Positions 22,172 through 49,618 are shown, counted from the first letter of the stretch. The stretch: 49,618 bases of DNA from Candidatus Kaiserbacteria bacterium (GCA_020428795.1 JAGQME010000004.1:1-49618); one strand, 5' to 3'. Numbers and translations are program-made. The notes: generated from the letters alone by a model not told the origin.

Positions 22172-22654
22172 TCAGCCCTTAATATAAACCTCAAACTCAT
22201 CGGGTGTCTCTCCCTCACCAGCCGGTATCAGATTTAGAGTCACCCGCTCACCCATAAAGCGAGCGTTAAAGGTGGCCTCTTCTGAAACCTTAGCCGTAAC
22301 ACTAAATCTCTGCGAAGTTAATTTTTCTTCACAATTTTGACTAGTATTTATAACTCCAAAGTCAATAGTGACTTGCTCCGGATATGACTCAGCCACCATC
22401 ACATCAGTATCCAACAAGTCGCAAGGAGTGGGCATTATTATCTCACCCACAATAGTGTGTGTACCGTCAATAAAATAATGTTTACCGGTAATTTCCGATA
22501 CATTATATTTATCAACCTGACTGATCACATCATTGTCTGTTTCCGGTTCGGTGTTGTTCACCATTTCTTGTTTTTTGATGTAAGTAAAAGCAAAGAGACC
22601 AACCACAATCAACAAAAATATAACCACCACCGCTATCAATGATTGTTTGTTCAT
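22172..22654 (-). CDS. Hypothetical membrane-anchored exported protein
   Basis: 160 aa. N-terminal TM LIAVVVIFLLIVVGLFAF. 3 nt from the downstream gene. Confidence 0.6.
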   Translation of the reverse strand: MNKQSLIAVVVIFLLIVVGLFAFTYIKKQEMVNNTEPETDNDVISQVDKYNVSEITGKHYFIDGTHTIVGEIIMPTPCDLLDTDVMVAESYPEQVTIDFGVINTSQNCEEKLTSQRFSVTAKVSEEATFNARFMGERVTLNLIPAGEGETPDEFEVYIKG

Positions 22655-22721
22655 AAGCTAGAGTTAAAATAATAATCTGTATTATAACTCAATTTAGCTT
22701 AACTTACTAAAACCAATCTGG

Positions 22722-24377
22722 TTATTCAGGTAATAAATCTTTACCAATGTAGACAGTGATAGTTGGATCGGTGTCAGCGGTGGCATCATCAGCAGATAGC
22801 AAAGCGTTTTCTAATTGTTTACTTAGAGCCAAAGCGTCTTCACTAAACTTAGGTGAATAAACTATGACCGTGCGGTCTTTAATATTCTCGGCATCAGACT
22901 TTAAATCACCGACTTGATAACCTAATTCCTGCAACTTAAAGCTAAGTGAAGCCGCCACACCAGATTTTCCACTAGCATTTACCAAGACCAACTCATACTG
23001 TTGATTATTACCCTCTTCCACGGTGAATTCAGACGATATCTTATCTCCACCGCTGGTTCTTTCGTAAATAACCTGTTCTGAAGACACGACAATGTCCTCA
23101 CCTCCCCGTTTTATCACAATTTCGTAAACTGAATCTGAATCAGTTACTATCAAGATAAATTTCAAAATTATAAAAACCATAAAACCAACAGCCAAGAGTG
23201 AGTAGAAAAATACCTGATAACGTCTAACAAAGCCAACTAAAACAAACAGCTTATCCTTCAGACTCTTAACGGTACTTAGTTTAGTAGACAAATCCTTATA
23301 GCCGGAGGTGATCGGAGTAGTCACCAACAGGCGTCGCTGGATTTTTATGTCTGAACCTTTCAACTTAGAAGTTGAAACCGGAACACTCTTTCGCATATTT
23401 GGATCCACACCAGCCAATACCAACATCCTTCTCACGTAAGACCTAATAGCAAATCTAATGAACCAAATCAGCGATACAAGAACTATTATAAATAACAGTA
23501 TGCCTTTTAGGGGTAGTACCCAAAAATGAGTAGCTCTTGAACTAAACTGCTTAGCGTCTTGTCCATAACCAAGAGTCACCTCAGCCGTATACCGACCAAT
23601 ATCAGCCAAAGAATACTGACCGTTCCAAGTAAACTCAAATTTTCTAATACTATTTGGCAAGACATTTCCAAAGTGAGTTTGTCGGTTAATTGGGATAATC
23701 CCTCTTTCCTTTCCCCACATGTTGGTGATGGTTATTTCACCCCTTGGTTGTAAATGAACATTACCGGTGTTCTCAAACCTAAGTTCAAAGGTGGTACTTG
23801 GCTTATCTACCAATCTCTTTACCGAACGAAATGACCGAACATTTCCAGACTCAACCACATCACCGGCCACTCGCACAAAAAATAACGAAGTGACCACCTG
23901 AGAGGTGTGTACCGCTGAACCCTCTGTTTTTGGTGGCTCGGTACTAATCAAAATAGCGGCGTAGTGACCCCCGGGAGCCGCTTCTTTTGGTACCTGTAAT
24001 TTAACCGGAATCTCAGCACTAGATTCGCGAGGGATTTTTATAACCCCTTTGGGTGTATCAATCCACTCACCTAGAGTTGAACCGTCTAATTCATTTTTAT
24101 CGAGTGGGATAAATTGTCCCTGTCCAGTTTCGCCTTGTGGCGAAAAATTAACCACCGTAGCATAAACCGATAAATCAAATGGGTTATTATTGATAACCCT
24201 AACCGAACTTGTCCAAGACTGCTCCGGTTCGGCTGACATTTCAAACAGAGTTGGCGTAACACTGAGTGAAAGTGACTGAGCCGAAACAGAGTTTAAAAAA
24301 AGTATGAAAAAACCTAAGACTAAAATAATATAGCCCGTTAGGTAACTAATCCGTTTTTTTGGAAAGTTTAATATCAT
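22722..24377 (-). CDS. DUF916/DUF3324-like surface anchor fused, through two TM segments, to a LytR_C domain
   Basis: Start placed at ATG 24377 (MILNFPKKRISYLTGYIILVLGFFILFLNSVSAQS signal); the track start is 24449. The two-lobed beta-rich ectodomain resembles ORFs 24346..25371 and 41068..42003. TM helices GILLFIIVLVSLIWFI and FFYSLLAVGFMVFIILKFILIV. The C-terminal YELVLVNASGKSGVAASLSFKLQELGYQVGDLKS...TVIVYS matches the LytR_C pattern. Confidence 0.7.
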   Translation of the reverse strand: MILNFPKKRISYLTGYIILVLGFFILFLNSVSAQSLSLSVTPTLFEMSAEPEQSWTSSVRVINNNPFDLSVYATVVNFSPQGETGQGQFIPLDKNELDGSTLGEWIDTPKGVIKIPRESSAEIPVKLQVPKEAAPGGHYAAILISTEPPKTEGSAVHTSQVVTSLFFVRVAGDVVESGNVRSFRSVKRLVDKPSTTFELRFENTGNVHLQPRGEITITNMWGKERGIIPINRQTHFGNVLPNSIRKFEFTWNGQYSLADIGRYTAEVTLGYGQDAKQFSSRATHFWVLPLKGILLFIIVLVSLIWFIRFAIRSYVRRMLVLAGVDPNMRKSVPVSTSKLKGSDIKIQRRLLVTTPITSGYKDLSTKLSTVKSLKDKLFVLVGFVRRYQVFFYSLLAVGFMVFIILKFILIVTDSDSVYEIVIKRGGEDIVVSSEQVIYERTSGGDKISSEFTVEEGNNQQYELVLVNASGKSGVAASLSFKLQELGYQVGDLKSDAENIKDRTVIVYSPKFSEDALALSKQLENALLSADDATADTDPTITVYIGKDLLPE

Positions 24378-25371
24378 GATCCTGTGGTTCTGAAGTGGTT
24401 TCTCTGACATAGACCGGTAGGCTACTAAAACTATCAAATTCATCATCACTGACAGAATACTGACGGTGAACTCTAAGAGCCAAGAACAAAGCCAGTATCA
24501 ACAGTATAATAAATACCCCGATAAGCTGATAGAGTGGCACAACGTAGAAAAATGTGGTGTCTTGCAGTTGGGCTAACTGTGAATCTCCATATTCCAAAGA
24601 AAGAAGGGCCTTATACTTACCAAAACGCATATCCTCCGGCAAATCGACGGTCAAAGTCTCCTGCTGATCTTTATTTATAGTGATATGACTCTCGTTAACT
24701 GGTGTTGCAAACACTTCGTTGCCAGAGGTGTCATAAAATATTATTTCACCATTAGGGTTTATATCCTTGGTACCAGCGTTTTTTAGAATTATTTCGGCTT
24801 TTGACTCTTCACTACCAGTAATAAAACGGTCGATCGAAAACTTGGCCAAACGCAAAAGCGTAACTGATTTGTCTTTTACCTCAATTCTAACAATCGTCCC
24901 AGGAACTTGGCCATTTTTTACACTAGCCTCAGCCTTGGGTCGATTACTACCGGAAGCGAAAGATATTAAAGCGTGATATTCCCCCGGCTTGGCTTGAGCT
25001 GGGATTTTAATTTGTAGATCAGCCACATGTTTCTCCCCGGGCGGTATTTCAATTCTAGCTCTTGAGATAGCAGTCCATGACGTTACCGTCTTTGAATTAT
25101 CAGCAATCGCCGGTTGGATAAAATCGGTTATGTTGCCATCGGCATCTACCGCAATTTCGTTTACAGTTGTATAAAGGCGCAAAGGAGTAGAGCCGGTATT
25201 GGTAATGGTAATTGGGACTGACTCAATCGATCTTGGCTCTAAGGTTTTATCTATTATCAGTGGAGTGACTTGATAAGCGTACGCTTGGTGAGTGACAGTT
25301 AAAAAAAACAAAGCAATAAACAAACTTAAGTACCTTAGTTTTAGTTTGAATTGTGGGATAACTAATTTCAT
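24346..25371 (-). CDS. DUF916/DUF3324-like surface protein with C-terminal TM anchor
   Basis: 341 aa. Signal peptide. Lobe 1 is VTPLIIDKTLEPRSIESVPITITNTG...SWTAISRARIEIPPGEKHVADLQIKIPAQAKPGEYHALISF. Lobe 2 is AEIILKNAGTKDINPNGEIIFYD...FGKYKALLSLEY. TM LIGVFIILLILALFLAL. Confidence 0.7.
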   Translation of the reverse strand: MKLVIPQFKLKLRYLSLFIALFFLTVTHQAYAYQVTPLIIDKTLEPRSIESVPITITNTGSTPLRLYTTVNEIAVDADGNITDFIQPAIADNSKTVTSWTAISRARIEIPPGEKHVADLQIKIPAQAKPGEYHALISFASGSNRPKAEASVKNGQVPGTIVRIEVKDKSVTLLRLAKFSIDRFITGSEESKAEIILKNAGTKDINPNGEIIFYDTSGNEVFATPVNESHITINKDQQETLTVDLPEDMRFGKYKALLSLEYGDSQLAQLQDTTFFYVVPLYQLIGVFIILLILALFLALRVHRQYSVSDDEFDSFSSLPVYVRETTSEPQDHDIKLSKKTD

Positions 25372-25376: not shown

Positions 25377-28300
25377 TTAGAAAGTTGGAACGGCGATATA
25401 GGTTATATTACTTTGGTATTCGCCAGGTACGTTATCTTCTGTGACCGATATTCCATATACAATATCATGAGTATCATTGGTTGGCACTGCGCTATACATG
25501 ATTTCAGAAGCGGTAGTAGCCAAAGCTGCAAAAGTATCATCTGGCGCAAATCTAGCCGATCCGCCCTGCAAAACATCATCACCAACATGATAACCGAAAC
25601 AACTAGTGGTGGTAGCACTACAACCATTAGCCCAACTAAGTGGCGAGGCGTTGGTGCCCGTTACCGGCAGAATGGTGTTGGCGTACTCATCAGTGAGTTG
25701 TTGATCTGTCATCATTAAGACTTGATAACCATCGGTGGCGTTGGTATTGACGGCTAATCGGTGACCAGTGTAGACCACGCTATTAAATGGCAACACTGAA
25801 AACGGCAGAGTGGACGGAGTGGAAGTTGCGTTAATAGTGAAACTATTGGTAGTAGTACCAGCTGGCAGACCCAAAATATCAAAGGTCAACGAAGCCCCAG
25901 CTGTTACCAAACTAGGGTATGATGAGCTTGCATAAACCGGCTCATTGTTAACCATATCCCAAAGCCTAAAGTAATAAACGGCGTTAACTCTGGTCAAACC
26001 TTGAGCGATTCCAAATTCAAACTCCGTGGTAGCTAAGGCTGGTTGTGTGACTAAGCTGGTACCACCGGTTGATTCATTGTGAGCCCCACAACCATTTCCA
26101 ATACCAGCAAAACAAGCATTACTATCTGATATTACTGAATTATCAATAATCTCATTATCACTACCAGCCACGTCCGCATAACACCAAGTCGAGGTACTGG
26201 TACAACTACTGGTACTAGTTAGAAAAGTACCGCCATCAGAAAAGTCAGCTGATTGTGAATACTGAAGGCCGAATTTGGTATTAACTCCTTCAGCATTCTC
26301 GGTTTCTTTTAGCGAAACACGGAGTTTTAATATTTCGTCCTCAACATCAATCGGAGCGGTATTTTCGGCCGCTAAGGCCGAGCTCGGGGTAAGATTGTTT
26401 TCGTCGGTAAACCAGCGCCAACTAGAGGTTAATGGAGTGTACCCGGAACTGCGCAGGGTTGGATAATTGTTATAGACAGACAATGGTGTACCATCACCAA
26501 AAACCATGCGCAAACAGTAATCAGCTCTTTGTACTGCTCCGTTTTGTTCAATCAACCAATCATATTCAACGTCTTCTCCGGCTGTCGCACTGTTGGGGTT
26601 AATGGCCGAATTGTTTGCTGATTCAAAAGTACCGGCTACATCAGAAACCGAAAATAGCAACAAAGATGGTAGTTCGGTACCATCGCTTGGTGTGGCATTA
26701 TAACCACGCCAGACTACGCCTGAACCAGGAGCACCAACATCAGTCCAAGTATTAATAGCCGAACAGGTACTAGACCTTAAGCCAAACTGTAATTTAAATC
26801 CTTGATTGGCTTGTGGCAAGGAAGCATTGACCACCTTAAGAGACATCCTCACTCGCACCCTCTCCCCTTCACCCAAAGGCTCATCAGCAATAGAAATTGA
26901 GGTGTTTTCACCAATATCACTAGCGCCCGCCGGCCACGGATCAGTTGGAGTTATCAGATCATTATCAACATAGAATCGGTAATAGTTCTGCCTGAAAGCT
27001 AATTCTGCTATTGGCCATTCCACAATCTCCGCTCGATAGGTGAGGGTGTTGCCGGTATCACTACGCCATAGGTAAAAGGCGGTGGTAGAAGCTAATCTAA
27101 AACCAGCAATTGGTCTTGGGAAGTTGGTTCCAATTTGTGAAAAACGGGTATTAGCAAAGATTGAGCTGTTTGAAGTACGTTCTAGGGTGTCACCAATATC
27201 AACTGAGAGAGTCAGTGGCTCCGTGCCGCCTCTGGTTGAGCCATTGACCTGGTGTACATTCATAGCCCCAGTTGTTACTTGAGTATTCTCAATCACCCAA
27301 GCCACAGAGGTGTGACCACCCGGTGTGGTAGCTAGCGAATCGATTTTAAAAGTAAGTTGACCCATACCGGATATAAACACCTCATGACCAAAATCAGCCT
27401 GTGTCTGTAGTCCATTAGTCATTCTCTTTTGAGTATGTAAAAAAGCTTGTGTGGTACTAATGACAGGGTTAGGAATATCAACTAATTCCAAATCACCGGC
27501 GGTCGAATAAGTGTGTTCAACTCTTTGTATATTCCAGTTTATACCAACAAATTCCACCACCGCATAACTAACTACTACCGCATCGCTACCAGAAGCCCCT
27601 CTTTCAAAGGTAGGTTGATTGGTCGATGAGGCCCAGTTTGAGGTAGTCTGCATGGTTTCATAATCTGCCCTAGCAACATCTGGGTTAGCAATACCGGTTA
27701 TAAAAACCACCACGTCATCATCGTCAAGAACGCCCGCCACAGCACTACCAGACATAGTGGTTGAATTTATACCGAAAGTAGCTGTAGACTGACCTCTAAC
27801 TACCATCTCGTTATCCGCTCCCCCGTCACCAATATATTCTATAATCTCCCAATCAACCTTAGTGTCATTTAAGGCTGTAGCCGGTCGAGTGAAAGTGATA
27901 GAGGTTAGTAAGTTTTCTGGATTAGAAATATAAGCAGTAACATCGTCTGTATTCTGATTACCACCAGCACTACTTTTTCCAGCTCCAGTGTGATGAGAAT
28001 TAGTTATACGAATAAAGGCGGTCGAAGTTGAAGCGGGAGCATCGTATTCTGAACCAGCTGTGATGGTGGAACCAGTTCCACTCACAAAAAGGGTACCTCT
28101 TTGAATCTTAAAGTCTTGTTTGGGTGAAGTTGATAATTCAGCGTATTCTATGTAGTTGTTTAAATCAACACCATTGTTAGAAACCCGAAAACAATAATTG
28201 GTGTCGTAGCCAGCCTTATCAGTTATCTCAAACGAATATTCGAGTTCCAAAAATTGTGAGCTGGTCAATGTCGTAGTAGCGCTAACCGCTGACGTATCGT

Positions 28301-31300
28301 TTTGTGCACCATTTGGAGAGAGATGAGATGAATTTTCATTAGTCATACCACCAAGACCAGCTGACACATCGGTGGTATCGCTACCTTGAGTTAGGTTGGC
28401 GATATCCAACATAGCAAAGGCCGCATCGGTATCACTAACTCTAGTCCACGTACCAACATTATTACAGGTTGTCACCTTGGTCCCATACTCCAGAGTAAAG
28501 CCAGCTGGAGCTGAAGTGTTAGTACCTTCGTTTGATACCTGTAAACGTAAACGAACTGGATCAAGTATTTTCATTCCGTACAGAGGCGTATCTTCAACCC
28601 CACCAGTAGCCGAAGTAGCAGATGCTTCATCACCATCGTCGTTTCTAAAATGATAATGAGTTTGAGTTAGATCAGCCCCCAATAAAGTGGTACTGCCACT
28701 AAGAGAAACAATGGTACTCGGGGCCACTGCGGCTCCACCCGTTACCACAATATCATCATCGGGAGAATTGATGGAAATATCAACAGTCTCACCATTTAGC
28801 GCACTATCAGTTACGTCGAACACAGTATAAAGACATATCGATTGCGTAGTAGAGGCCGTCACACCATCACTAAAAGTAGAGGTGCCGTTGGCGCCAGAAA
28901 AACCGTTAGTATCAGTAGCCCCAAATTGAGCCTCGCCACCACCATAGGACTGATCGTCACAAGTATAAGGATTAGTTATATCTAGGTCATAAAAAAGTTT
29001 AATATTTGAAAGACCGACACTAGCATCGACCGAACCAGACTCAGTAATTGTTACATCGGTCAGTTGTCTGCTACTGGAGTTTTCTTTGATAACAAAAGTA
29101 CCACCAATGTATTGATCAGTCGCTGGTATATTTATATTAGAAACCTGTGTACCGGTGGCTGATAGGGTTACATCAGCCGCTATCGTGGCCCGTGCGTAAA
29201 TATCATAGGCTCGTAATTCTGTACCAGCGTCGGTCAACCTAAAACAATAAGTAGTACCCTCTGCGGCCGAGGACGAAGCTACCAAAGAATACTCTAACTC
29301 TAGAAAATTATTGGTATCCAAGACAAGGCCAGTAGTTTGTGAGGTAGTATCCAACAAAGCCCCGTTTGGACTAAGGTGGACAGAATTACCATTAGTCACC
29401 CCACCGATGCCAATACTAATGTCAGTAGAATCTGTGCCGTTGGTCAGATTAGAAGAATCGTACATAGAAAAGTCATCATCGGCCGTATCAATATCAACCC
29501 AACCGGAAGCTAGGCTACAATTACCGGCCGCTTCGGCATATTCAATCCTAAACGACGTGGCGTCTGAGCTGGTAGAACCCTCATTAGAAACTCCAAAACG
29601 TAATCTAAAGGGTGTCTCAGTCTGCAAGGCACTGAGGTTAGTATCTTCACTACCGTTTGTCCTTGAAGTGGCACCACTTTCGTTTCCATCGTCGTTTCTA
29701 AAATGAAAGTGTTGTTGAGTAAGAACAAAATCCCTTACAGTGGTATTACCGCTTGGAGAAACCAACGTATTTGGTACTACAGTACCACTTGAAATAACCA
29801 CATCGCTACTCGGATTAGCAATGTCAACCGACAGTGTCTTGGTATCTGTTTCTTCATTTAAGATATCGAGTGTAACATAAACACATAGTGCTGAGGTAGT
29901 CGATATTTCTACACCTGACTGAGTAAACGAAGCCGTCCCTCCGTCACCGGTAAAACCACCAGTATCGGTTGAACCGAATTGTGATTCTGTAGCGTTATAT
30001 GATTCACTTTCACAATTGTAGGGACTAGAAGTATCGTATTCATAATAAAGCCTTATATTATCAACTCCCGTATCACCATTTATGGTTCCACTTTCAGTTA
30101 AAGTAATGGAACTTACAGTTCTGGTGGCTATATTTTCATTAAAAACAAAACTCCCACCTAAATGAACACCGGTGTCGCCGGCTCTAACCTCAGAGATTTG
30201 AGTACCGGTAGCACTAACCGTTACTCCACCAAACACATCGGCGATAGTGTCACCGTAAATATTAACAGCGGTGGCATCGAACCAAGTGGCGTAAATTCTT
30301 TCATCGGAGTAATTATTCAAATCGACCCCCCATAAGTCACCAGAACTGGTATTGATGGGTCCGGTCTCACTTCCCCATGAACTCATAGCGTTGGTAGAAG
30401 AATTCCAGTAAACATCCGCTGTATCAGCGGTGGCGGGAACACTTCGTCCAGTATAGGCCACGTAGACATTGTCAGTGTTTGCGTCTAAAGCCATCGCTAT
30501 CTGAGTGAGACCCAGAGCACTATCAGTCACCATATCGGTAGTATTGGTCCATGATCCATTATAGACAGCGCTTCTAATGTCATCATTAGTACCAAGGGTG
30601 TTGGCCTGAGCTATGTAGGCTAGATAAACAGACCCATCGCTTGCAGTAACGGCCGCCATAGCCACGTCGTAAGTACCGTTCTCCGGAGCGTTAGTATCCA
30701 CATCAGTCCAACTTCCATCCCATGAACTACTACTGTTATGCCAAACTTGTGATCGCACACTATTAGCAGATAAATCTCGATTAATAAGTAAAACATCACC
30801 ACCGGTAAGTGGTACTAAAAGACTCCAATCGTTTACCAAATCTTGGGGTGAAGTCCCAGCTTCTGTCCAATTAGTACCCACATTACAAGCACTACTACAC
30901 CTCACCACAATTGAGTCACTAGCGTCATCCACAGCTGCAAATAGAGTACCGTCGGTAGCTTTGGTTATAGTTGGGCGATTGGCTCCTAAGGCTAGGGTAC
31001 CGGAAAATCCAGCATTGGCAGTAATATTGAGAGCAGTCGATCCCATCAACAAAGTGTCGTTACTGGTGTCAAGGCGATTATAAAACAAATCATCATCTCC
31101 TTGGTCCATGGTTAGGATGTGGATATAGCCACCAGCATCACCCGGCGTCCACGGATCATAATGAACCGAAATCGAGTTACAGTCAGTCTGAGCAGCTTGA
31201 TCATCAACGTTAACTGGCGAACCCCAAGAAGCACCACCATTAGTAGTCTTTACATATGAACACTCCCCAACACTGTCTCGGAAAAATTTGTAACCAATGT

Positions 31301-36723: not shown

Positions 36724-36724
36724 A

Positions 36725-39507: not shown

Positions 39508-39541
39508 GGTGTTTGGTAGTGTATAAATTTAGCTACGTGGG

Positions 39542-39567: not shown

Positions 39568-39658
39568 TTTTATATTTCTCTATACTCTTTTCTATTTATA
39601 TAAATAATTTGAACACCAGATACATAGAGGGGTTGTTGGAATTAAAATATAAATCCCT

Positions 39659-39704
39659 AAAAACAAATAGTATGATATTACATAATATCATACTATTTGT
39701 TTTT
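39659..39704. terminator. 22-bp perfect inverted repeat with bidirectional terminator geometry
   Basis: aaaaacaaatagtatgatatta-ca-taatatcatactatttgttttt. Confidence 0.7.
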
Positions 39705-39717
39705 AGGTCCCATATCG

Positions 39718-39801
39718 AAGGTTTGACTGCGAGTTCCTAATTTTCTCAAGGGGAGAAAAAATTAGGAACAAAATTCGCAATATGCCCTGCGGGCATTTGC
39801 T
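39718..39801. repeat. Structured intergenic repeat A, copy 1 (84 bp identical core)
   Basis: Identical to 39851..39934. Contains a long hairpin gttcctaattttctc / gagaaaaaattaggaac, extended by tgcga/tcgca, and a GC hairpin atgccc-tgc-gggcat. Degenerate similarity extends about 9 bp further 5' (from 39709). Confidence 0.9.
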
Positions 39802-39850
39802 GCGGAGTATAAAGTAAAAACAGGCTCTGTCTGGTTTATCACCTATACCA

Positions 39851-39934
39851 AAGGTTTGACTGCGAGTTCCTAATTTTCTCAAGGGGAGAAAAAATTAGGA
39901 ACAAAATTCGCAATATGCCCTGCGGGCATTTGCT
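39851..39934. repeat. Structured intergenic repeat A, copy 2
   Basis: 84/84 identical to copy 1, with a 133-bp period. It ends 4 nt from the stop codon (39939..39941) of the dockerin gene. Confidence 0.9.
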
Positions 39935-39938
39935 CATT

Positions 39939-41067: not shown

Positions 41068-42003
41068 CTACTTAATACGATTGCGACGGCGTGAAATGTA
41101 CATAAGGATGATCACAACAAATATAGCCAAAATCGGTAGTATTACGGATATCTTATGAGGCAAAGATAACCCAGCAAAACCGAATCCAGCCGCCTGTAAA
41201 GTACCATACGGTAAAATATTCAAATTAACTTCTCCTTCCAACTTAACATCATCATGATTCATGATTTCAAATCTAGCCATGTAGGCACCGGCCGGTAATC
41301 TGGTTGGAATTTCGGCCACTACTTGTTCGGTAGCGAATGGTTTAACTTTAGTAATCTTACCTAGGTTTTTAGTTTCTTCTAACAAAACCTTGCCAGAGGC
41401 ATCGTAAATCCTAAAGGCCACTTTAGACGGTGCCACATCAACGTTACCAGTGTTTTCCAACATCATAGAGAAATTTATTTTTCCAGGGAAGAACAACCAA
41501 CCGATTTTTTTACCTTCATTTAAATCACTGATACCAATCTTACGAATCTTAAAGTCTTCAATTACTTTATCAATTACATTAAACTCCAAATCAATCAAAG
41601 CTCCCAGCGAAATATTTACAGCACCAGCCCCCACAGCGTTATCAACCGCTCCAGTCTTTATACGCAAGGCACCATTGTAGTTTTTAAATTCAGCATCACT
41701 CGGTACCTTTACCCTAACAGTCATTGGAACCTTCTGCTCACCCCGAGGTAATATAAATTCATCACCCTCCAAAACCTCAACCCAATCAGAAAAACCAGGC
41801 GCATCTACCAATATAGAAGCTTTTAATTCGGTATTGGGATCACCACGCACAATAAGAATCTGTTGCTCGTAGGTTGAATTTCTGGTTAAGCTGGTATTTC
41901 TAACATAAGGTGGTGTGACACCAAATCCAGCAAAAACAGACTCCGTTGATATCACTAGAGAAAACAATACGATTAAGCCAACTGAAAGAAATCGAAACAT
42001 CAT
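41068..42003 (-). CDS. DUF916/DUF3324-like surface protein with C-terminal TM anchor (third paralogue)
   Basis: 311 aa. Signal peptide. GVTPPYVRNTSLTRNSTYEQQILIVRGDPNTELKASILVD...WVEVLEGDEFILPRGEQKVPMTVRVKVPSDAEFKNYNGALRI. Second lobe MMLENTGNVDVAPSKVAFRIYD...LPAGAYMARFEI. TM ISVILPILAIFVVIILMYI. Confidence 0.7.
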   Translation of the reverse strand: MMFRFLSVGLIVLFSLVISTESVFAGFGVTPPYVRNTSLTRNSTYEQQILIVRGDPNTELKASILVDAPGFSDWVEVLEGDEFILPRGEQKVPMTVRVKVPSDAEFKNYNGALRIKTGAVDNAVGAGAVNISLGALIDLEFNVIDKVIEDFKIRKIGISDLNEGKKIGWLFFPGKINFSMMLENTGNVDVAPSKVAFRIYDASGKVLLEETKNLGKITKVKPFATEQVVAEIPTRLPAGAYMARFEIMNHDDVKLEGEVNLNILPYGTLQAAGFGFAGLSLPHKISVILPILAIFVVIILMYISRRRNRIK

Positions 42004-42116: not shown

Positions 42117-44000
42117 CTACCATTGAGAAGCATCGCTGGCTGCTCCAATAAAGGTGTTTTCTCCAGTATAAGCTCCTGAGTAAGTAATCGTTCCCGGAAC
42201 GGCAATACCCCAATAAGTTTCCTTCTCAGCCTGCGTGTTAGTAGCGGTTGACTTAGAAATATTTAAGTCAAGATACTTGTAAGTTGATGATGAAAGGAAG
42301 TTACCGGCCCCCAGAGCTGTTGCGTAAGTAACTGATGAGGTGGCAAACACCTGCTCTGTTTCAGGAATAGTCGATGTCGCTGAATTAGGACAACTGAAGG
42401 CTCCTGAGTAAGTGCTACACATGGCTTGACCGGACAATTCTTGGTCCAGACCAATGTTACCGGTCGCTCTAAAGGTAGTAGTGGCTACTAGAGGGTCGGT
42501 CTGTTGACCTGGCTCAAGCTGTTGGTAAGCGATCACAAAAGTATCAAGGGCGTAGGCTAAGAAACTAACCAATTCTTGTCCGGTATTACTTTGTACGTAA
42601 GAACTGGTAGCCAAATCATCATCAACTCCTCTTACGGCTACCGACCAGTCAGTAGCAAAATGAATCGAAGTGGTGGCAGACCCATCAGTTGGATCGGCAA
42701 CATACCAAAGCGGGAAGGTACAGTCGTAGACCATAGTGGTATCTATACCGTCAACACCAAAAGTACAACTGGTTGAAGAAGCGGTACAAGACAGATTCCA
42801 AGTAGAAGTAGCCAAACCGCTTGGATAACAATTGTTTGGATTGTAATCAGCTGCGTCTGGTGTACAGGTAGTGGTACCAACGGTAGTTCTATATACAGCC
42901 AACTCATAACCAGAAATCTCTGGACCAGAAGCAGCGTTTTCACAACTATTGTCGTCAGAAACAGAGAATTGAATCTGGAAACCAGTGGTCTCGCCAGCAT
43001 CTTGAGTTAAGATGATGTCTTGACCGTCGTTAAGGGTAATTTGGTTTGATAGAACCACCGGTGGCGCATTTGAAACAGTAATATCTGATTGACCACCTTG
43101 AGCACCACCGGAAGCAGCGTGTCCGTGTTCATCAATAATATACAGGAAGACCGGATAATCATCGTCTTGAGTTGGGATAGTAATAGTATAGGTAGCGGCT
43201 GGATTTGAAGCCGACAAAGTTGAACTAGCTAGCTCAGTTGCGGTACAGGTTGAACTAGCCACATTGAAAGAAGCAGTTGAACAGACAAACAACTGAACAT
43301 CATCCTGAGCTGGCACCACGTCTGGATCACTTGAAGTAGCAGTGATAGTTACCACGCTACCCGGCAAGACCGGTGAGTCGTTACTGTAGCCAGTAAAGAC
43401 TGGACGACTGTTCATATTGAAAGGAGAAGCGGTTAGACCAGTTCCTTGTTTAGAGACAGCGTTACATCTTGGTAGGACAGGATCATCGTCACAGATCCAA
43501 GCGTACCAAGTGTTCTGCTCGTTAAAGTCATCACCGACTTCAGTGGTGGTAGTGGCGGCTCTAGCTTGTACACCACTGGTAGCAGCTGGTGAAACCGCCC
43601 ACTGAGTTGAAGTAGCGGTACAGCTAGGAGGTGCGGTTCCTAAAGAACCATAGCCAGCCGCTGCGGCCGGTACCGCTGAGTTAGGGCTATCACAGACCAG
43701 TAAGAAATAAGGTTGGTTACTAGGATCAGTGGCCGTAGCTACCCAAGCTACTTCATCACCAGAATTGGTCGGATTGGCATCTGAAGATTCAGACTCTTCT
43801 TCAGCGTCAACCGTCCAGCCTGGTGGAGTGTTTAAAACCGTAATACTGGTGGTAGCAATATTACTTTGGGCTTCTACTTTTTGGAGTTCTTTGGCTCCAA
43901 AATTAAGAATGAATATAGCAGCAAAAATGACCACCCCAACTAAACCAGTGATGATGGTAATCTTACCAGCCGAATTTTTTATTAATGACAGCTCTTTCAT
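42117..44000 (-). CDS. Cys-rich secreted surface protein with Ig-like repeats and type-2 WxL-like C-terminal domain
   Basis: 627 aa. Signal/TM ITIITGLVGVVIFAAIFIL. C-terminal ...YQQLEPGQQTD...GNIGLDQELSG...IPETEQVFATSS...ETYWGIAVPGTITYSGAYTGENTFIGAASDASQW. Its last ~300 aa are collinear with ORF 48594..49618. Confidence 0.8.
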   Translation of the reverse strand: MKELSLIKNSAGKITIITGLVGVVIFAAIFILNFGAKELQKVEAQSNIATTSITVLNTPPGWTVDAEEESESSDANPTNSGDEVAWVATATDPSNQPYFLLVCDSPNSAVPAAAAGYGSLGTAPPSCTATSTQWAVSPAATSGVQARAATTTTEVGDDFNEQNTWYAWICDDDPVLPRCNAVSKQGTGLTASPFNMNSRPVFTGYSNDSPVLPGSVVTITATSSDPDVVPAQDDVQLFVCSTASFNVASSTCTATELASSTLSASNPAATYTITIPTQDDDYPVFLYIIDEHGHAASGGAQGGQSDITVSNAPPVVLSNQITLNDGQDIILTQDAGETTGFQIQFSVSDDNSCENAASGPEISGYELAVYRTTVGTTTCTPDAADYNPNNCYPSGLATSTWNLSCTASSTSCTFGVDGIDTTMVYDCTFPLWYVADPTDGSATTSIHFATDWSVAVRGVDDDLATSSYVQSNTGQELVSFLAYALDTFVIAYQQLEPGQQTDPLVATTTFRATGNIGLDQELSGQAMCSTYSGAFSCPNSATSTIPETEQVFATSSVTYATALGAGNFLSSSTYKYLDLNISKSTATNTQAEKETYWGIAVPGTITYSGAYTGENTFIGAASDASQW

Positions 44001-44132: not shown

Positions 44133-45341
44133 TTATTCGTACCTTATAGCATCCAACGGATTAAGAGTAGCCGCTCGTCTAGCTGGAAAAATACCTGTTA
44201 GGTACCCAACTGTGGCTGAGAACAGAGCGATAAAAACCAAAAACCACATTGGGAAGGAAAACAGATTGACTGACTGACCACCAAATTGACTAGCGGCTAG
44301 GTTCAAAAGAAGATTAACCACCAACCCGAGAGTCACACCCATCAAAATACCTGACAGTCCACCAAGGAAACCGACGATGATTGACTCAGACACAAACAAC
44401 CACTTAATGTCAGCCGGAGCGGCCCCAATGGTACGCATGATCCCGATCTCCTTGGTTCTTTCAAGCAAAGTCACCGTCATGGTGTTAAACATTCCAATTG
44501 CCGACACTAATAAAGCAATTCCACCAAAAGTGGCTAAGACCACCTGTACTCCTTGGAATATCTTAGAAGCCTGTTCCACTGTTTTCGAGAGGGCTGTGAC
44601 TCGATACCCGTCTTCGATCAAAGCGTCTTCCACGGTGTTTAAAAATTCGTTACTCTCCACCCTAACTTGAACCCGCTCAAACTCCTCAATACCAAGATGT
44701 GAACGCAACTCTGGCAACATCATCAGAGCATTAAGTACCCCCTCTTCTTTGGTTATACCCTTTACCACATACTCTTTATCAATCACCACTTCGTTAATAG
44801 TATCGGTTCCATCGTTGGCTGGCACCAAAATCCTAAATTTAACCTTTTCGCCTATAAATGAATCAAGATCTTCTATTCCAAACAACTTTAAAACCGCTGG
44901 CGAAAGCATGACGCTATTTTGATCGCCAGCATCTTCATCAGTAAAAACATCACCAGCTTGAGCGGTCACACCAGCGTATCTTAGGTAAGGTGGTTCGGCT
45001 CCTTGCACAAATACGTTACCAGTCAATCCTTTGTAAGTAATGAGGGCCGGAAATCTAGCCAACGGAGCGGCATCGAGCACGTTATCCATTTCTTTGAATT
45101 TTGTCACCGTCTCTGGTGTTAGACGTAAATTTTGAGCTCCGGTGGACGAGACGCCGAGTGAAAGCAAGGTCTCACCGAACACAATCTGTTCAAGAATGAT
45201 TTGCTGAAGACCAAAACCCAGACCCACCAAAACCACCACCGCTCCGGTACCCACCCCCATACCTAAGATGGTAAGCCAAGTACGTAACGGATTGGTCTTA
45301 AAAGCTCTAGTTGAAAGTTGGGCTAAATCTCGTAATCGCAT
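44133..45341 (-). CDS. MacB/FtsX-type ABC transporter permease
   Basis: 402 aa. TM1 WLTILGMGVGTGAVVVLVGLGFGL, a large extracytoplasmic loop, then the FtsX motif IGIMRTIGAAPADIKWLFVSESIIVGFLGGLSGILMG and two more TM helices. Confidence 0.9.
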   Translation of the reverse strand: MRLRDLAQLSTRAFKTNPLRTWLTILGMGVGTGAVVVLVGLGFGLQQIILEQIVFGETLLSLGVSSTGAQNLRLTPETVTKFKEMDNVLDAAPLARFPALITYKGLTGNVFVQGAEPPYLRYAGVTAQAGDVFTDEDAGDQNSVMLSPAVLKLFGIEDLDSFIGEKVKFRILVPANDGTDTINEVVIDKEYVVKGITKEEGVLNALMMLPELRSHLGIEEFERVQVRVESNEFLNTVEDALIEDGYRVTALSKTVEQASKIFQGVQVVLATFGGIALLVSAIGMFNTMTVTLLERTKEIGIMRTIGAAPADIKWLFVSESIIVGFLGGLSGILMGVTLGLVVNLLLNLAASQFGGQSVNLFSFPMWFLVFIALFSATVGYLTGIFPARRAATLNPLDAIRYE

Positions 45342-45398: not shown

Positions 45399-46721
45399 CT
45401 AACTCTTATAACTAACATCAACCCCTAAGGCAATTATCTTTTCAAAATACCTAGTCAAATCATCTGCCTCCTTTTCTGACAAAGCCAAACCACCAGCGGT
45501 GACACCCTTCATCATACCGGCATTTAATTCATCTTCACCACTAACACCAACTACTCGATCAGCAATCAACTCCGTGAGATTTTGATCTTGCTTCTTAGAC
45601 AACTTTAATCTATGCGCATGTAACAAATGATCCTTAAGGCGCTCGGCTAGTTTATGTTGACCGAAGAAAGCATGGTCGTTGTTTTGTTGTTTACGAAAAC
45701 GACGAATATCGTCAGCGTTACCGATTATTTTGGCCGAAGTATGTACCATTCTCCTAGCATCTTTCTCCGGCAACCCAACTCCACCCCGTTCATACGGCAT
45801 AATTAGAGCCTTCATAACCGCCACTTTATCTACCTTACCAGCAATAAAATGACTGATGATTGACTCCATTCTTACCAACTGATCGTACGTATAGTCCTGA
45901 GTTAATAGGTTGACCAGACTTTTTACCCTTAAAGTATCAACCGAATCATACGGAAAGAGTCTGGCCAATTGTTCTAACTCAGTAACAATGGTCTCCCCTT
46001 CTTTGACCGGTTTTATTTGTTTTCTTTGCGGATTCACAACCTCACGTACAATCGCACCATCTTTTAGGTAATACACACGGTGAGCGTAGCTTAAGTGAGC
46101 AGCGTTGTGTGACACCATGATAATAGTCCGTTTATCAAAAGTATTGATTTCATCAATCTTATCCATTACTTGTTGAGTGGACACGGAGTCTAGGTTTCCG
46201 GTTGGCTCGTCAGCGAGCAATATTTTAGGATCATTGACCATCGACCGAGACACTGACACACGTTGTTGCTGACCACCGGAAAGCATCGGAGTAATTTTAT
46301 GAGACACCATACCCACTCCAAACCGATCGAGCAACGATTGCGCCCTTCTTTCTCTGGTTGGTTTATCGACGTTAGCAAAAATCATTGGCAAAGCCACGTT
46401 ATCAAGCACCGTCAAAGATGGGATTAGGTTAAATTGCTGAAAGATAATACCCATCACATAGCGCTGGAAGTAAACACGATCCTCAATGCGAAGAGCATAA
46501 ATATCCTCACCACCAATACGCATCGTTCCACCACCCGGCGGTAGCGAACCCTGTATGGCATACATAAGAGTGGATTTTCCTGAACCAGAGGCTCCGAAGA
46601 GAATTATGTACTCACCTTCGTAAATATCGGTACTAGCATTAGACAGAGCCCTAAACTCGTTTGACTTACCTTTGTTATATATAATGTCAAGGTTGCGACA
46701 GATAATTAGTGGTTTGGCCAT
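45399..46721 (-). CDS. ABC transporter ATP-binding protein (MacB/LolD/FtsE-like) with unassigned ~210-aa C-terminal extension
   Basis: Start placed at ATG 46721 (MAKPLIICRNLDIIY); the track TTG is at 46769. GASGSGKSTLMYAIQG, LSGGQQQRVSVSRSM and ILLADEPTGNLD. Residues after ...YYLKDGAIVREV (nt 45402..46037) match no motif I recognise. Confidence 0.9.
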   Translation of the reverse strand: MAKPLIICRNLDIIYNKGKSNEFRALSNASTDIYEGEYIILFGASGSGKSTLMYAIQGSLPPGGGTMRIGGEDIYALRIEDRVYFQRYVMGIIFQQFNLIPSLTVLDNVALPMIFANVDKPTRERRAQSLLDRFGVGMVSHKITPMLSGGQQQRVSVSRSMVNDPKILLADEPTGNLDSVSTQQVMDKIDEINTFDKRTIIMVSHNAAHLSYAHRVYYLKDGAIVREVVNPQRKQIKPVKEGETIVTELEQLARLFPYDSVDTLRVKSLVNLLTQDYTYDQLVRMESIISHFIAGKVDKVAVMKALIMPYERGGVGLPEKDARRMVHTSAKIIGNADDIRRFRKQQNNDHAFFGQHKLAERLKDHLLHAHRLKLSKKQDQNLTELIADRVVGVSGEDELNAGMMKGVTAGGLALSEKEADDLTRYFEKIIALGVDVSYKS

Positions 46722-46811
46722 AGAAAAATTCGGCGAAAAAATCTCGTTTCTATAATTAGAACATACCAACCCTCTTTACCTTAGGGGTAGTATCCACACA
46801 TATCATCGAGA

Positions 46812-47051: not shown

Positions 47052-48569
47052 TTATCCCGTGATGTTTTTGACCCAGCCGAAGGTACTTTCAAAGTTTTCT
47101 AGAATCAAATCAATGATGTTTTTTTCTTGAATCGGAGTAAACAACACAAAGTTTTCTGACTGAACAGCGTTTCCAGCTTCGTCCGTACAATTAAGCCAAA
47201 ACTGATAGACCGTAGCTGGAGCAAAATCAACCACTACCTGAACGTGTCGTTCAGTGTAATTAATTTGCTCATCCTCAACCACAATCGGATCAACTCCCCC
47301 GGCCACCCCTTCTCGATAAGTCATCGAACAATAAGCCGGTTCGTCGGTACGCCACTCTACAATCGTTTGAATCCTTGATTCACCACCCGGGAAGATAGTG
47401 GACTCATTCGTTACGTTACTAATAATCGGCGGAGCGGTATCGCGAGAAGTAATAAAAGTAATTGGCTGACTCCTTACCCTGTCACCACCAGAATTTTCTG
47501 AAATAGCGAAAGCAACGTATCTGGTACCTAAAGTAAGATCAGCTATACGCATCTGATGAGTAGTAGCTAGTGTGGGCCGACCGATAGAATTTTGAACACC
47601 TGTAGTCAAATCTTGGTACTCAATCAAAGCCTTGGCTGGTACGGTTGTATCCCAAGCAATCGTGGCTGAATCTTCTTCTACCTTTACAATTCGTAGGTTT
47701 CTAATGTCCGGTAAAGAAGCCTTCGTCTTAAAAGTAAAGTTTCGACTCTCACCTTCCACTCCCACCGAATCGGTTGAAATAACCTTAAAACTATAATCAG
47801 TGTAAGACTCTAATCCAATCAATTGGACTTCATGTTCTTGAGTTAGACCAGCCGTACTTGATTGTGAAAACTCATAATTTGTACCATCAAAGGTACTGGT
47901 TTTTGAAAATAACACCGTAGAATCAGCCTCACGATCAGTGGACCACTTAACCAAAGCGGTGGTAGTCTCCGGTATCACAGTTGGTGGACCGATGATGGTT
48001 AGATCGTCAGTAATACCTTGAATAGCCTGGATGGTGACATCAAGGATTTCTTGCAATTGTGTGACCTCGGTTATTTCTTGAATTTGCTCGATTATTTCTT
48101 CGGTGGTGGTATCACTTTGGTTTCCACCTTGCCCAGGAGCTTGGCCACTACCCTCTCCCGTACCCTGACTTTCAGACTGTCCTTCGCCCTGACCCTGTCC
48201 GGTATCTTGAGTAGTTTCGTTATCAGTCTGGATTTTATAATCAGCCGAAATACCTTGGTTACCCTCTTCATCGGCCGAGACAACTCGGAAATAATACTGC
48301 CGACCAGGTTCTAAATCGTCCAGTGTCACACTGTGAGACTGGCGATTAGCTTCCGGTATACGAACAATACCGTAATCGGGCTTCAAACCGTAGTTAACCA
48401 AGGAATCAGCGTCTTCATCGGTCTGCCACTTAATCTCAACTTCAGTTGGAGACACGATATTTATTTCAACGTTGGATATCTCTGGCGGAGTTACATCATT
48501 CGACTGAGCGTAAGTGAGGGTAGCCACCAAGAAGAATGAGACTAATACTGAGAAAAAACTTTGCTTCAT
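47052..48569 (-). CDS. Secreted protein with four fibronectin-type-III-like domains
   Basis: 505 aa. Signal peptide. Repeated pattern PPEISNVEINIVSPTEVEIKWQTDEDADSLVNYG...LEPGRQYYFRVVSADEEGN, seen four times with variation. Q/G/E-rich linker TGQGQGEGQSESQGTGEGSGQAPGQGG. Confidence 0.8.
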   Translation of the reverse strand: MKQSFFSVLVSFFLVATLTYAQSNDVTPPEISNVEINIVSPTEVEIKWQTDEDADSLVNYGLKPDYGIVRIPEANRQSHSVTLDDLEPGRQYYFRVVSADEEGNQGISADYKIQTDNETTQDTGQGQGEGQSESQGTGEGSGQAPGQGGNQSDTTTEEIIEQIQEITEVTQLQEILDVTIQAIQGITDDLTIIGPPTVIPETTTALVKWSTDREADSTVLFSKTSTFDGTNYEFSQSSTAGLTQEHEVQLIGLESYTDYSFKVISTDSVGVEGESRNFTFKTKASLPDIRNLRIVKVEEDSATIAWDTTVPAKALIEYQDLTTGVQNSIGRPTLATTHQMRIADLTLGTRYVAFAISENSGGDRVRSQPITFITSRDTAPPIISNVTNESTIFPGGESRIQTIVEWRTDEPAYCSMTYREGVAGGVDPIVVEDEQINYTERHVQVVVDFAPATVYQFWLNCTDEAGNAVQSENFVLFTPIQEKNIIDLILENFESTFGWVKNITG

Positions 48570-48593
48570 AGCTTGTCATTATAATAACACCGA

Positions 48594-49618
48594 CTACTCA
48601 CCAACAGCATAGAGGGTGTTGACTCCTTGGTGCGAGGTGGCGGCAGTACCAAACGGAACATTTATACCCCAATACAGCACATCATTTACAAATGGCGCTG
48701 GGGTGCTTGGTTTTGGTAGATCCAGTGGCACTGATTGAATGGTACTCGAGGATAGAGTTCCACAATCACCACAGGAGTTGTAGGTGAAAGTAGAGGTCGA
48801 GAACTTTTGTTCAGTGGCTGGGATGATTGAGGACAAACCATTACTCAAGTCAGTGGCTTCGATATCAATGTCCAGATTATCATTACCTAGGTTATAAATA
48901 GTGGTACTGGCATTATTGGCACCGGTGTCTTGCGCCGGTTCGAGTGTTCCGTAATCAATTCCTTGATTGGTTGATATATACCTTAGAGTCATCAGTTCCA
49001 CTCCCATCGCTGAAGAGAAATCATAACCACCCGCCGCATCTTCGACCTCTACGTAAGCCAACCATTCCTCACCCTCGTAAATATTGTCATCGGTTGGATC
49101 AGCGTTGTAGTAAATATCAGCCTGACACTGAATAGTACAAGTTGAACCAGCACAATCGGTAAATGAACAAGAACCAGCACTGGTGTTGCTTATATAGCAA
49201 TTATTTGTATCAGCCACACAAGCTGCTCCCGCCCCACTTCTGTAAATAGTAGAAGTAGCCAAAACCAGATCAGAGTAGCCATTAAGGTCACTTACTGTTC
49301 CGGTGGCGTAAACCGTAGTAGTAGCCCCTGGCTGTAAGGTAATCGGGTTTCCTTCGTTCAATATAATCGAACTGATAGTCGGATCAAAGCTTAGACTCAT
49401 CTCAGCCACTGTAGCGTAGGAATCAAGATCAGTGCCATTATTAGTCACCCGTAGACAGTAGCCATCTGAAGCATTAATAGTTGAAACTATGGCGTACTCT
49501 AATTCGGTATAGAAGTTTTGATCAACATCTAATGACGAGGTTATGGATGATGGACTAGTAACAACCGATCCGGCACTGAAGGCTCCGTTAGTTCCGGACA
49601 GTAAATCGGTGGTTGACT
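48594..49618 (-). CDS. Surface protein, 5'-truncated by the window edge: HFRNDDG-type module end, Cys-rich Ig-like region, type-2 WxL-like C-terminal domain
   Basis: The track lists 48594..49448 from an internal GTG, but the frame stays open to 49618. The upstream part reads ...NFYTELEYAIVSTINASDGYCLRVTNNGTDLDSY, matching FLELEYS...YCFR..G..L of the giant protein. The C-terminus IDYGTLEPAQDTG...IPATEQKFSTST...VLYWGINVPFGTAATSHQGVNTLYAVGE is paralogous to ORF 42117..44000. Confidence 0.75.
   Translation of the reverse strand, partial: STTDLLSGTNGAFSAGSVVTSPSSITSSLDVDQNFYTELEYAIVSTINASDGYCLRVTNNGTDLDSYATVAEMSLSFDPTISSIILNEGNPITLQPGATTTVYATGTVSDLNGYSDLVLATSTIYRSGAGAACVADTNNCYISNTSAGSCSFTDCAGSTCTIQCQADIYYNADPTDDNIYEGEEWLAYVEVEDAAGGYDFSSAMGVELMTLRYISTNQGIDYGTLEPAQDTGANNASTTIYNLGNDNLDIDIEATDLSNGLSSIIPATEQKFSTSTFTYNSCGDCGTLSSSTIQSVPLDLPKPSTPAPFVNDVLYWGINVPFGTAATSHQGVNTLYAVGE

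Follow-up and report, generated by a model that had tools for sequence, protein, structure and literature searches.

The Pam pilus of Candidatus Mycosynbacter amalyticus, a member of the candidate phyla radiation (CPR), is made of the pilins PamA, PamB, PamE and PamT, the chaperones PamC and PamD and the anchor PamR (bioRxiv 10.64898/2026.03.03.709456). In Pam pilins, a donor linker joins an N-terminal sandwich to a truncated immunoglobulin-like (Ig) C-terminal domain; PamC and PamD resemble PapD and FimC but, unlike classical chaperones, retain a C-terminal transmembrane (TM) helix; and the system has a tip subunit, PamT, an RbmA-like anchor, PamR, and no usher. Members of the pilin model have been seen as filaments by cryo-electron microscopy (cryo-EM). 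According to the same preprint, Pam pilins occur mainly in Saccharimonadia and Microgenomatia; Paceibacteria, giant subunits, ATP-binding cassette (ABC) transporters and cohesin-dockerin proteins are not mentioned there (bioRxiv 10.64898/2026.03.03.709456). A second related system, the WxL cluster, comprises a small WxL protein, a large one whose WxL domain is C-terminal, and a WxLIP (DUF916-DUF3324-TM), and AlphaFold2 (AF2) predicts that a strand of WxLIP inserts into WxL (PMC10599100). Paceibacteria (Parcubacteria) are among the commonly reported CPR groups and dominate seepage water (PMC11188291). In this study, we analysed a 49,618-nt stretch of DNA from Candidatus Kaiserbacteria bacterium (GCA_020428795.1, JAGQME010000004.1:1-49618; hereafter the window), focusing on the 27-kb block that extends from position 22172 to the window end. 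This block is a gene cluster that ultra-small Paceibacteria have conserved rigidly, and its products most likely assemble into a surface fibre or adhesin complex. The cluster is related, at a distance and in expanded form, to the Pam pili that were reported from other CPR bacteria in 2026 and to WxL surface complexes of Firmicutes. To our knowledge, host attachment in Paceibacteria/Parcubacteria is essentially unknown.

In an open reading frame (ORF) scan, every long ORF from 20944 to the window end was located on the minus strand, as are all genes of the window whose coordinates are given below; plus-strand ORFs in this interval did not exceed 131 aa and were all nested inside minus-strand genes. 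From 22172 onwards, there were 17 complete ORFs and one 5'-truncated ORF. The first-pass annotation had counted 20 minus-strand coding sequences; the strand was as described, and the number is reached only if a DsbA-like gene (21503-22168) and a TlpA-like gene (20944-21498), both outside the block, are added. In the order of transcription, the cluster encodes a giant protein of 5-8 thousand residues (kaa), an FN3 protein, an ABC ATPase, a MacB permease, a 627-aa protein ending in a module that we call b2, and a two-lobed membrane protein, aC (o41068). These are followed by a dockerin protein, a 376-aa protein ending in a second module, b1, two cohesin-TM proteins (350 and 600 aa), a 221-aa protein and a cohesin-dockerin protein (253 aa), and then by a propeller protein, a 2-kaa giant (b1), the two-lobed proteins aA (o24346) and aB (o22722, with LytR_C), and a 160-aa protein. 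Intergenic gaps are short and there are no strand switches. As had been predicted, hydropathy scans, in which cleavable signal peptides and uncleaved anchors are not told apart, revealed an N-terminal hydrophobic segment or TM helices in all products except the ABC ATPase and the truncated ORF at the window edge; several products additionally have C-terminal TM helices.

Anchoring a metagenome scan on o41068 yielded 80 loci, of which 36 were at least 12 kb long, and gene order was identical in all 36; the poorly conserved 221-aa gene was sometimes under the detection threshold. The order was also the same in seven independent assemblies. The first fourteen genes, up to the start of the 2-kaa giant, have one-to-one counterparts (27-82% identity) in the complete 951,832-bp genome CP060228.1, labelled Candidatus Kaiserbacteria, and, with the same range of identity, in genomes labelled Nomurabacteria. 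The order of the 3' genes (aA, aB and the 160-aa protein) is kept in separate loci, and a genome-contig search with the single protein o24346 returned one locus. Synteny across relatives had been named beforehand as a test of the cluster, and its outcome was very strong. In some assemblies, the orthologues of the 627-aa, FN3, pilin-like and cohesin proteins are split into two adjacent ORFs (7981-9895 in locus L006; 3691-5198, 12468-13527 and 14756-16521 in locus L008), which reflects either frameshifts/pseudogenes or assembly errors.

The relationship to Pam pili is carried by module b1, which forms the C-terminus of the 376-aa protein (o37954; 37954..39084, conserved linker and b1 at 37957-38541) and of the 2082-aa giant (25377..31625, linker and b1 at 25380-25952). 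The two C-termini align with an hhalign probability of 99.7% (E 3e-25) and with a BLASTP E-value of 4e-4. Module b2 likewise forms a pair, between the 627-aa protein (o42117) and the edge gene, over the last ~300 aa (hhalign 99.8%, E 2e-30; BLASTP E 1e-15). Between b1 and b2, the hhalign probability stayed below 5%, even with a 150-sequence b1 profile. The first-pass annotation had described four related C-terminal domains; as a single family this was rejected by hhalign and by the 150-sequence hidden Markov model (HMM), and what holds is two pairs. Since no relation between b1 and b2 was detected, the shared ending "...G.Y....T(Y/F)(I/V)A" is a motif resemblance rather than a demonstrated homology.

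Among the NCBIfam models of the Pam system, NF058581 (CPR_Pam_pilin_C, with a cut-off of 55 bits) was matched by the C-terminal 183 aa of the giant (E 2.2e-6, 27.8 bits), over positions 20-148 of the 148 positions of the profile. It was also matched by 40 of the 46 orthologues of o37954 (best E 5.7e-10) and by 38 of the 67 wider b1 family members (best E 5.1e-13), one of the latter also matching the PamT model (NF058579). Judged from these sequence comparisons, b1 and the C-terminal domain of Pam pilins are homologous, a result that is statistically sound though below the curated cut-off. The b1 profile retrieved 1416 cluster representatives (50% identity) at E ≤ 1e-3 and 842 at E ≤ 1e-10. In nearly all of the 150 best representatives, b1 is located at the extreme C-terminus; most of these proteins are 340-400 aa long and some 570-1022 aa. 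One member of the wider family (A6) matches NCBIfam TafC, of haloarchaeal Tat-fimbriae (E 4e-11), and assembly by strand donation has been reported for a bundling pilus made of Taf proteins; two members match choice-of-anchor B. A divergent b1 protein of 1022 aa (locus L011) lies on a short contig, with housekeeping genes as neighbours.

The AF2 model of o37954 (mean pLDDT 88.7) comprises a helix (residues 2-26) and two sandwiches (41-181 and 195-374) joined by a linker (182-194); this two-domain protein is the candidate shaft subunit. In the monomer model, the linker is a coil in which pLDDT dips, but few stretches of the family are as conserved (VTVTAAVDTIFTF); judging from the model, such features are expected of a donated linker. 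Sequence searches with o37954 gave no direct match to a solved structure. More than 800 homologues of o37954 were found, with identities of 50-64% among the best 120. Such high conservation and wide occurrence would also suit the abundant subunit of an S-layer or other two-dimensional envelope lattice, with the remaining proteins as its anchor, as would the apparently separate expression unit described below and a weak NCBIfam match of o24346 to "putative S-layer protein" (E 9e-5, 21 bits versus a cut-off of 110). We consider a lattice highly improbable: o37954 itself has no match to any S-layer family, the significant matches of b1 are to a pilin model, and the two-lobed partners resemble pilus chaperones and WxLIP.

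The pilin-like gene is separated from the dockerin gene by a long intergenic region of 854 non-coding nt (39085..39938), rich in repeats, palindromes and terminator-like hairpins. It contains two 100-nt direct repeats (39702-39801 and 39835-39934), 94% identical and each with small hairpins, and two perfect palindromes, at 39463-39514 (26-nt arms) and 39656-39707 (25-nt arms); several of these elements resemble terminators on the minus strand. Neither an Rfam family nor a tRNA was found in this region. A long gap, of about 330-900 nt, is also present at this position in orthologous loci. Directly 3' of the stop codon of the 376-aa gene, there is a terminator-like hairpin followed by a T-run (37872-37894). 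The long upstream region and this hairpin suggest that the 376-aa gene is expressed on its own and strongly, which is often the case for major pilin genes.

Three proteins, all with a C-terminal TM helix according to hydropathy, are candidate partners of these C-terminal domains. The first, aA (24346..25371), consists of a two-lobed ectodomain, with a sub-threshold Pfam match to WxLIP_PGBD, and its TM helix. The second, aB (22722..24377), has a two-lobed ectodomain, a TM helix, a cytoplasmic loop, a second TM helix and an extracytoplasmic LytR_C domain (Pfam E 6.4e-12); its start at 24377 is consistent with the lengths of its orthologues (549-555 aa). The third, aC (41068..42003), starts with a signal peptide, which is followed by two beta-sandwich lobes and the TM helix, and is a candidate membrane-anchored chaperone or anchor. 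The three are paralogous: aB and aA align by BLASTP (E 3e-15), and the family profiles of aC (A2) and aA (A3) align over both lobes (hhalign 96.8%, E 2e-10, 211 columns). The first-pass annotation had called them DUF916/DUF3324-like; the two-lobed, TM-anchored architecture was confirmed, the DUF916 link (WxLIP_PGBD, PF06030) remained sub-threshold in the window (21.3 bits for aB and 25.7 for aA, versus a Pfam threshold of 27.3), and the DUF3324 part (PF11797) fell away, as Pfam gave no match to it in window proteins or orthologues. DUF916 was nonetheless found in 12 of the 51 aA orthologues at E ≤ 0.001 (best 2.3e-7). The best match of the aA family profile to PDB sequences, EfmWxLIP1, was marginal (E 0.056), and a weak NCBIfam match to "fimbria/pilus chaperone" was obtained for aA (E 0.012).

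In the AF2 model of aC (mean pLDDT 80.3), a signal helix and a long C-terminal TM helix flank two beta-sandwiches. In a Foldseek search of the PDB, the Vpr peptidase fibril 8jmw_A ranked first (E 1.8e-11), followed by the Enterococcus faecium WxLIP 9i25_C (rank 2, E 7e-10), with WxLIP 9i1y at ranks 6 and 15; lower ranks were occupied by PapD-like and ASH-type domains, RbmA, and the pilus chaperones FimC, CfaA, Caf1M and DraB. Given RbmA among these structural matches, one of the three copies could be PamR-like. A total of 1240 homologues of aC was found. Among its best 120 homologues, aC is more conserved (64-79% identity) than the 376-aa protein (50-64%), while its paralogue aA is far less so (35-55%). 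The mature N-terminus of aC (GFGVTPPYVRNTSLTRNSTYEQ) hardly varies at all, suggesting that an interaction surface is conserved here.

These structural matches also suit a static surface complex of the WxL type, in which b1 and b2 would be docking domains held by the TM-anchored WxLIP-like proteins, with no filament. The WxLIP entries among the top Foldseek ranks of aC and the DUF916 matches of the aA family agree with it, as does the gene arrangement. A small protein, a large protein and an anchor occur together twice: the 376-aa protein with the 2-kaa giant (b1), the giant being followed by aA and aB, and the 627-aa protein with the 5-8-kaa giant (b2), the 627-aa gene being followed by aC. 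This fits the published definition of a WxL cluster, for which a WxLIP strand is predicted to enter WxL, and aB carries in addition a LytR_C domain, which is otherwise found in cell-envelope (LCP) proteins. However, Pfam revealed no WxL domain (PF13731) in the window proteins or their C-terminal fragments, none is listed for 120 orthologues, and DUF3324 is likewise missing. Moreover, b1 matches a pilin model whose members were seen as filaments, and the conserved inter-domain linker of o37954 looks like a donor strand. We therefore regard a static complex as fairly unlikely. Of the analogy with WxL loci drawn in the first-pass annotation, the structural side and the twofold small/large/anchor logic stood, and the WxL and DUF3324 domains did not. 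The cluster is thus not a member of the WxL family, and that it works like one is plausible by analogy.

The giants carry the remaining recurrent module, d, for which an HMM was seeded on two copies and then iterated. It detected four copies in the 2082-aa giant, at residues 635-818, 986-1169, 1544-1729 and 1732-1911 (29172-29723, 28119-28670, 26439-26996 and 25893-26432, respectively), as well as a partial copy in the edge ORF (49383-49616), in agreement with the copies noticed at first; their alignment follows the pattern HFRNDDG...RLR...SNEG...LEY...W...YCFR. Module d, the other segments of the giant and b2 had no match in Pfam, and a PDB profile search with module d gave only a marginal match to a galectin (E 0.033). 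The possibility that module d is a copy of the pilin N-terminal domain was rejected (hhalign 0.1%). The same giant has a second module in two copies, spotted by eye (residues ~470-640 and ~815-990; pattern VSATGTQ...GG.F...E...R....T.TESG), SxxxGxxW-type motifs reminiscent of BNR/Asp-box repeats in the N-terminal region (~80-470), and a unique region of ~380 aa (~1165-1545); none of the three matched a Pfam family. The edge gene (48594..49618) is the 3' end of a giant gene, with the partial module d followed by b2 (48597-49367); its orthologues are 5436-8128 aa long and contain the Pfam domains DUF2341, Laminin_G_3 and Pentaxin. The small bearer of b2, the Cys-rich exported protein o42117 (42117..44000, b2 region 42120-43040), has 14 Cys, 10 of which are invariant across 6 orthologues, and gave no Pfam, NCBIfam or PDB sequence match.

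Taken together, we think it probable that the island is a strand-complementation fibre or adhesin system with membrane-anchored chaperones, in which the 376-aa protein would be the shaft and the giants the adhesins. By analogy with Pam, chaperone-usher and WxL/WxLIP systems, subunits would be exported by Sec, and the TM-anchored, PapD/WxLIP-like proteins aA, aB and aC would bind the b1 sandwich of ~190 aa on the outside of the membrane. The 376-aa protein, in which an N-terminal sandwich, a conserved extended linker and b1 follow one another, would then polymerise into a shaft, in which each linker completes the b1 domain of the following subunit. The 2082-aa protein, in which four lectin-like d modules precede a linker and b1 of the same kind, would be a large adhesin on or in the fibre. 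The 627-aa protein and the 5-8-kaa giant share b2, and the small member is encoded directly upstream of the third chaperone-like gene; the same logic may therefore apply to them by position. The membrane-anchored cohesin proteins and the dockerin proteins might form a base or scaffold. Finally, the MacB-type ABC pair could use ATP to perform mechanical work on the outside of the membrane, such as the release of N-terminally anchored subunits.

Several cohesin and dockerin modules are encoded in the middle of the cluster. The type I membrane protein o34960 (34960..36762) contains a cohesin (Pfam Cohesin, 43.1 bits versus a cut-off of 24.1), a Big_13 domain (E 6.7e-9), a C-terminal TM helix (residues 496-514) and a cytoplasmic tail. 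A second type I membrane protein, o36725 (36725..37777), has an N-terminal cohesin-like module, related to o34960 by BLASTP (E 6e-14), and a C-terminal TM helix (304-322). The 253-aa protein o33526 (33526..34287) combines an N-terminal hydrophobic segment, a cohesin-like module (BLASTP to o34960, E 9e-11) and a C-terminal dockerin-like/EF-hand segment, for which both Dockerin_1 (17 bits) and dockerin_GC (20.2 bits) were under their cut-offs. The secreted protein o39939 (39939..41057) consists of a Cys-rich DUF4215 repeat (E 1.1e-8; NCBIfam myxo_disulf_rpt, E 4e-11), Big_6 (E 5.9e-11) and other Ig-like domains, and a C-terminal dockerin (Dockerin_1, 24.6 bits versus 22.9). The three cohesin-like and two dockerin modules of the first-pass annotation were thus all recovered, one dockerin above and the other below threshold. 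A cohesin (PF00963) and a dockerin (PF00404) are found above the gathering threshold on separate proteins (o34960 and o39939), which are putative binding partners.

The ABC pair noted at first was also recognized. The ATPase (45399..46769; Pfam ABC_tran, E 1.7e-30) is 74-88% identical across loci, and the permease (44133..45341), of the MacB/FtsX type (type VII ABC), has four TM helices and an extracytoplasmic MacB_PCD domain (Pfam MacB_PCD, E 2.7e-16; FtsX, E 2.7e-17) and is 80-87% identical across loci. The TTG start of the ATPase ORF is probably wrong; an ATG at 46721 would give a protein of 440 aa, matching the orthologues. The ATPase has a C-terminal extension of ~215 aa (residues ~245-456) that had no family match, and the length of 440 aa is constant in all orthologues. 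The closest NCBIfam models of the pair, DarD, MacB, LolD/LolCDE and FtsE/FtsEX, all scored below their cut-offs; in sequence terms, this is a generic type VII ABC transporter with no equivalog-level assignment. The two redox genes 3' of the cluster belong to the expected families as well. The DsbA-like protein (Pfam Thioredoxin_4 and DSBA) has a CHFC motif, and the TlpA/ResA-like protein (Pfam Redoxin) has no cysteine at all: its usual WCxxC site reads W-S-P-H-S, and two orthologues are also Cys-free (WASWSPFS and WASWSPDS), which makes it a conserved, redox-inactive protein with a thioredoxin fold. Both are variable neighbours, as DsbA is absent in locus L010 and both are absent in locus L005.

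Some of our results weigh against a fibre of the Pam type or against its full extent. All matches of window proteins to NF058581 fall under the 55-bit cut-off, and o37954 itself reached only 18 bits over 38 residues. The Foldseek matches of o37954 are generic two-Ig adhesins with low TM-scores, and the Pam structures 25PZ and 25QA (PamA and PamB) were not among the matches of two PDB searches. The fold modelled for aC fits a chaperone and an RbmA-like anchor of the PamR type alike. For b2, hhalign detected no relation to b1, and Pfam and PDB profile searches none to anything known. Finally, all loci come from one broad lineage, and the downstream housekeeping genes are syntenic in these relatives too, so that synteny alone does not prove the system to include the ABC pair and the cohesin genes.

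The last of these points lead to another explanation, namely that the genes are neighbours by lineage-wide synteny, only the pilin-like and chaperone-like genes cooperating and the ABC, cohesin-dockerin, FN3 and propeller proteins serving separate envelope functions. The order of the AI-2E transporter, PGA_cap, FKBP, TGT and UvrB genes downstream is also kept, the metagenome loci are all at least 57% identical in o41068 and hence come from one broad lineage, and the ABC pair is of a generic type. However, a variant locus, L005 (SKGH01000021.1, 1-13100, labelled Candidatus Kaiserbacteria), argues otherwise: at this position, it lacks the block from the 627-aa to the 253-aa protein, including the 376-aa gene, and its ABC and MacB genes directly adjoin the propeller, 2-kaa giant, aA, aB and 160-aa genes. 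In addition, every product is predicted by hydropathy to be exported or membrane-bound, the cluster has no strand switches and short gaps, and the identical order in 36 of 36 loci was observed across many environments. We judge mere neighbourhood to be distinctly unlikely for these companions. At the other extreme, and tentatively, all 18-20 genes might form one Paceibacteria-specific machine, that is, a usher-free, strand-complemented fibre with three anchored chaperones, lectin-repeat adhesins of 2-8 kaa and a cohesin-dockerin root, powered or remodelled by a MacB-type ABC transporter. If so, it would be an energised, possibly releasable or retractable host-contact organelle without a described counterpart. 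The cluster as such may be a host-contact apparatus, as proposed in the first-pass annotation.

The other products of the cluster are small or repetitive exported proteins. The 607-aa propeller protein (31652..33475) is N-terminally anchored and has an acidic low-complexity region, TolB-like beta-propeller repeats (NCBIfam propeller_TolB, E 5e-6, far under the cut-off) and a Ser/Thr/Pro-rich tail. The 505-aa secreted protein (47052..48569), whose position is constant across loci, has an N-terminal hydrophobic segment and repeated FN3/Pur_ac_phosph_N-like domains (Pfam fn3, E 2.6e-18; Pur_ac_phosph_N, E 1.9e-21). Two further N-terminally anchored proteins, of 160 aa (22172..22654) and 221 aa (34284..34949), gave no significant family match in Pfam and NCBIfam scans; the former is always 3' of aB in the loci compared, and the latter is the least conserved member of the cluster (25-34% identity across loci). 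The housekeeping genes (AI-2E transporter, PGA_cap, FKBP, TGT and UvrB) are located 3' of the cluster. Past UvrB, on the same strand, positions 7636-13046 encode a 920-aa Big_13 Ig-like protein, a histidine kinase and a FIST-domain protein, which may represent a further surface protein with a sensor.

The core principle of such a system is already published, in the Pam pilus preprint of 2026 and for WxL/WxLIP, and NCBIfam models exist. Literature searches returned no description of this Paceibacteria cluster with its giants, MacB-type ABC pair and cohesin-dockerin proteins. Hence, the proposal that the system is undescribed does not apply to its core, whose b1 module has a homologue in the C-terminal domain of Pam pilins, and applies to the Paceibacteria architecture. 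Our analysis extends a newly found pilus class to another CPR class, in the form of a distant relative with the same C-terminal pilin domain and anchored PapD/WxLIP-like partners. The cluster is rigid, with 18-20 genes in one order in the loci examined, L005 lacking the middle block. The 2-kaa giant ends in a pilin-type domain and the 5-8-kaa giant in an analogous, unrelated module, which suggests how the giants may be mounted on the cell. Moreover, the ABC pair and the cohesin-dockerin set are nominated as fixed companions.

The cluster resembles the Pam system in several respects. The 376-aa protein is predicted to have the same succession of N-terminal beta-sandwich, conserved linker and C-terminal Ig-like domain. 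Its two-lobed, PapD-like partners have a C-terminal TM helix in the models and are putative chaperones. Both systems have Sec-exported subunits (here by prediction), paired Cys in the subunits, no usher and a CPR host. In contrast to Pam, the present cluster belongs to Paceibacteria, and all its scores lie below the family cut-off. One of its b1 bearers is a giant of 2082 aa, and it has a second small/giant pair with the unrelated b2. Further additions are the MacB-type ABC pair, the FN3 and propeller proteins, and three cohesin-like plus two dockerin modules. The pam operons are reported to have an ATP synthase neighbourhood, which is missing from this window, and neither PamT (NF058579), PamR nor chaperone-specific models were matched by any window protein.

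With WxL clusters, the locus shares the combination of small and large proteins with a common C-terminal beta domain and a TM-anchored partner with two Ig lobes. WxLIP structures (9i1y and 9i25) are among the best structural matches of aC, and the first lobe gives the DUF916 sequence matches. It differs in having three WxLIP-like genes, two client domains, clients of 2-8 kaa and 18-20 genes instead of 3-4, and in lacking a WxL motif or domain and DUF3324; no polymer has been proposed for WxL proteins.

Two other described systems are more remote. Cellulosome scaffolds are similar in that Cohesin and Dockerin_1 were found above threshold, the cohesin bearers being cell-anchored and a dockerin bearer secreted; however, the cohesin bearers here are anchored by TM helices and not by SLH domains or sortase, and a cellulosome was rejected, as Pfam scans of the window proteins revealed no glycoside hydrolase or other enzyme module. 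With type VII ABC transporters (MacB, LolCDE and FtsEX), which work by mechanotransmission and not by transport across the membrane, the ABC pair shares an ATPase and a four-TM permease with an extracytoplasmic MacB_PCD domain and an FtsX domain. It differs from them by scores below every equivalog cut-off and by the ~215-aa extension of the ATPase, and it is linked to the pilus-like genes by position only.

Chaperone-usher pili (Pap/Fim, Caf1, CFA/I and the archaic Csu/CupE) differ in that the present cluster belongs to a cell with no outer membrane and no usher, its chaperones are membrane-anchored, and the candidate donor strand is an internal linker rather than an N-terminal extension; Pfam gave no match in the window to an usher or to a PapD-family chaperone (PF00345/PF02753). 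Nevertheless, they have in common with it a two-lobed Ig-like fold, with FimC, Caf1M, CfaA and DraB among the Foldseek matches, a tip-adhesin logic (an N-terminal binding part and a C-terminal pilin-type domain), and a separate and, here, presumably strongly expressed gene for the major subunit. In all three kinds of system, Pam, WxL and chaperone-usher, two-lobed Ig-like partners appear, by analogy, to act by strand complementation, and the locus described here links Pam pili, Firmicutes WxL complexes and chaperone-usher pili as variations of this one structural theme.

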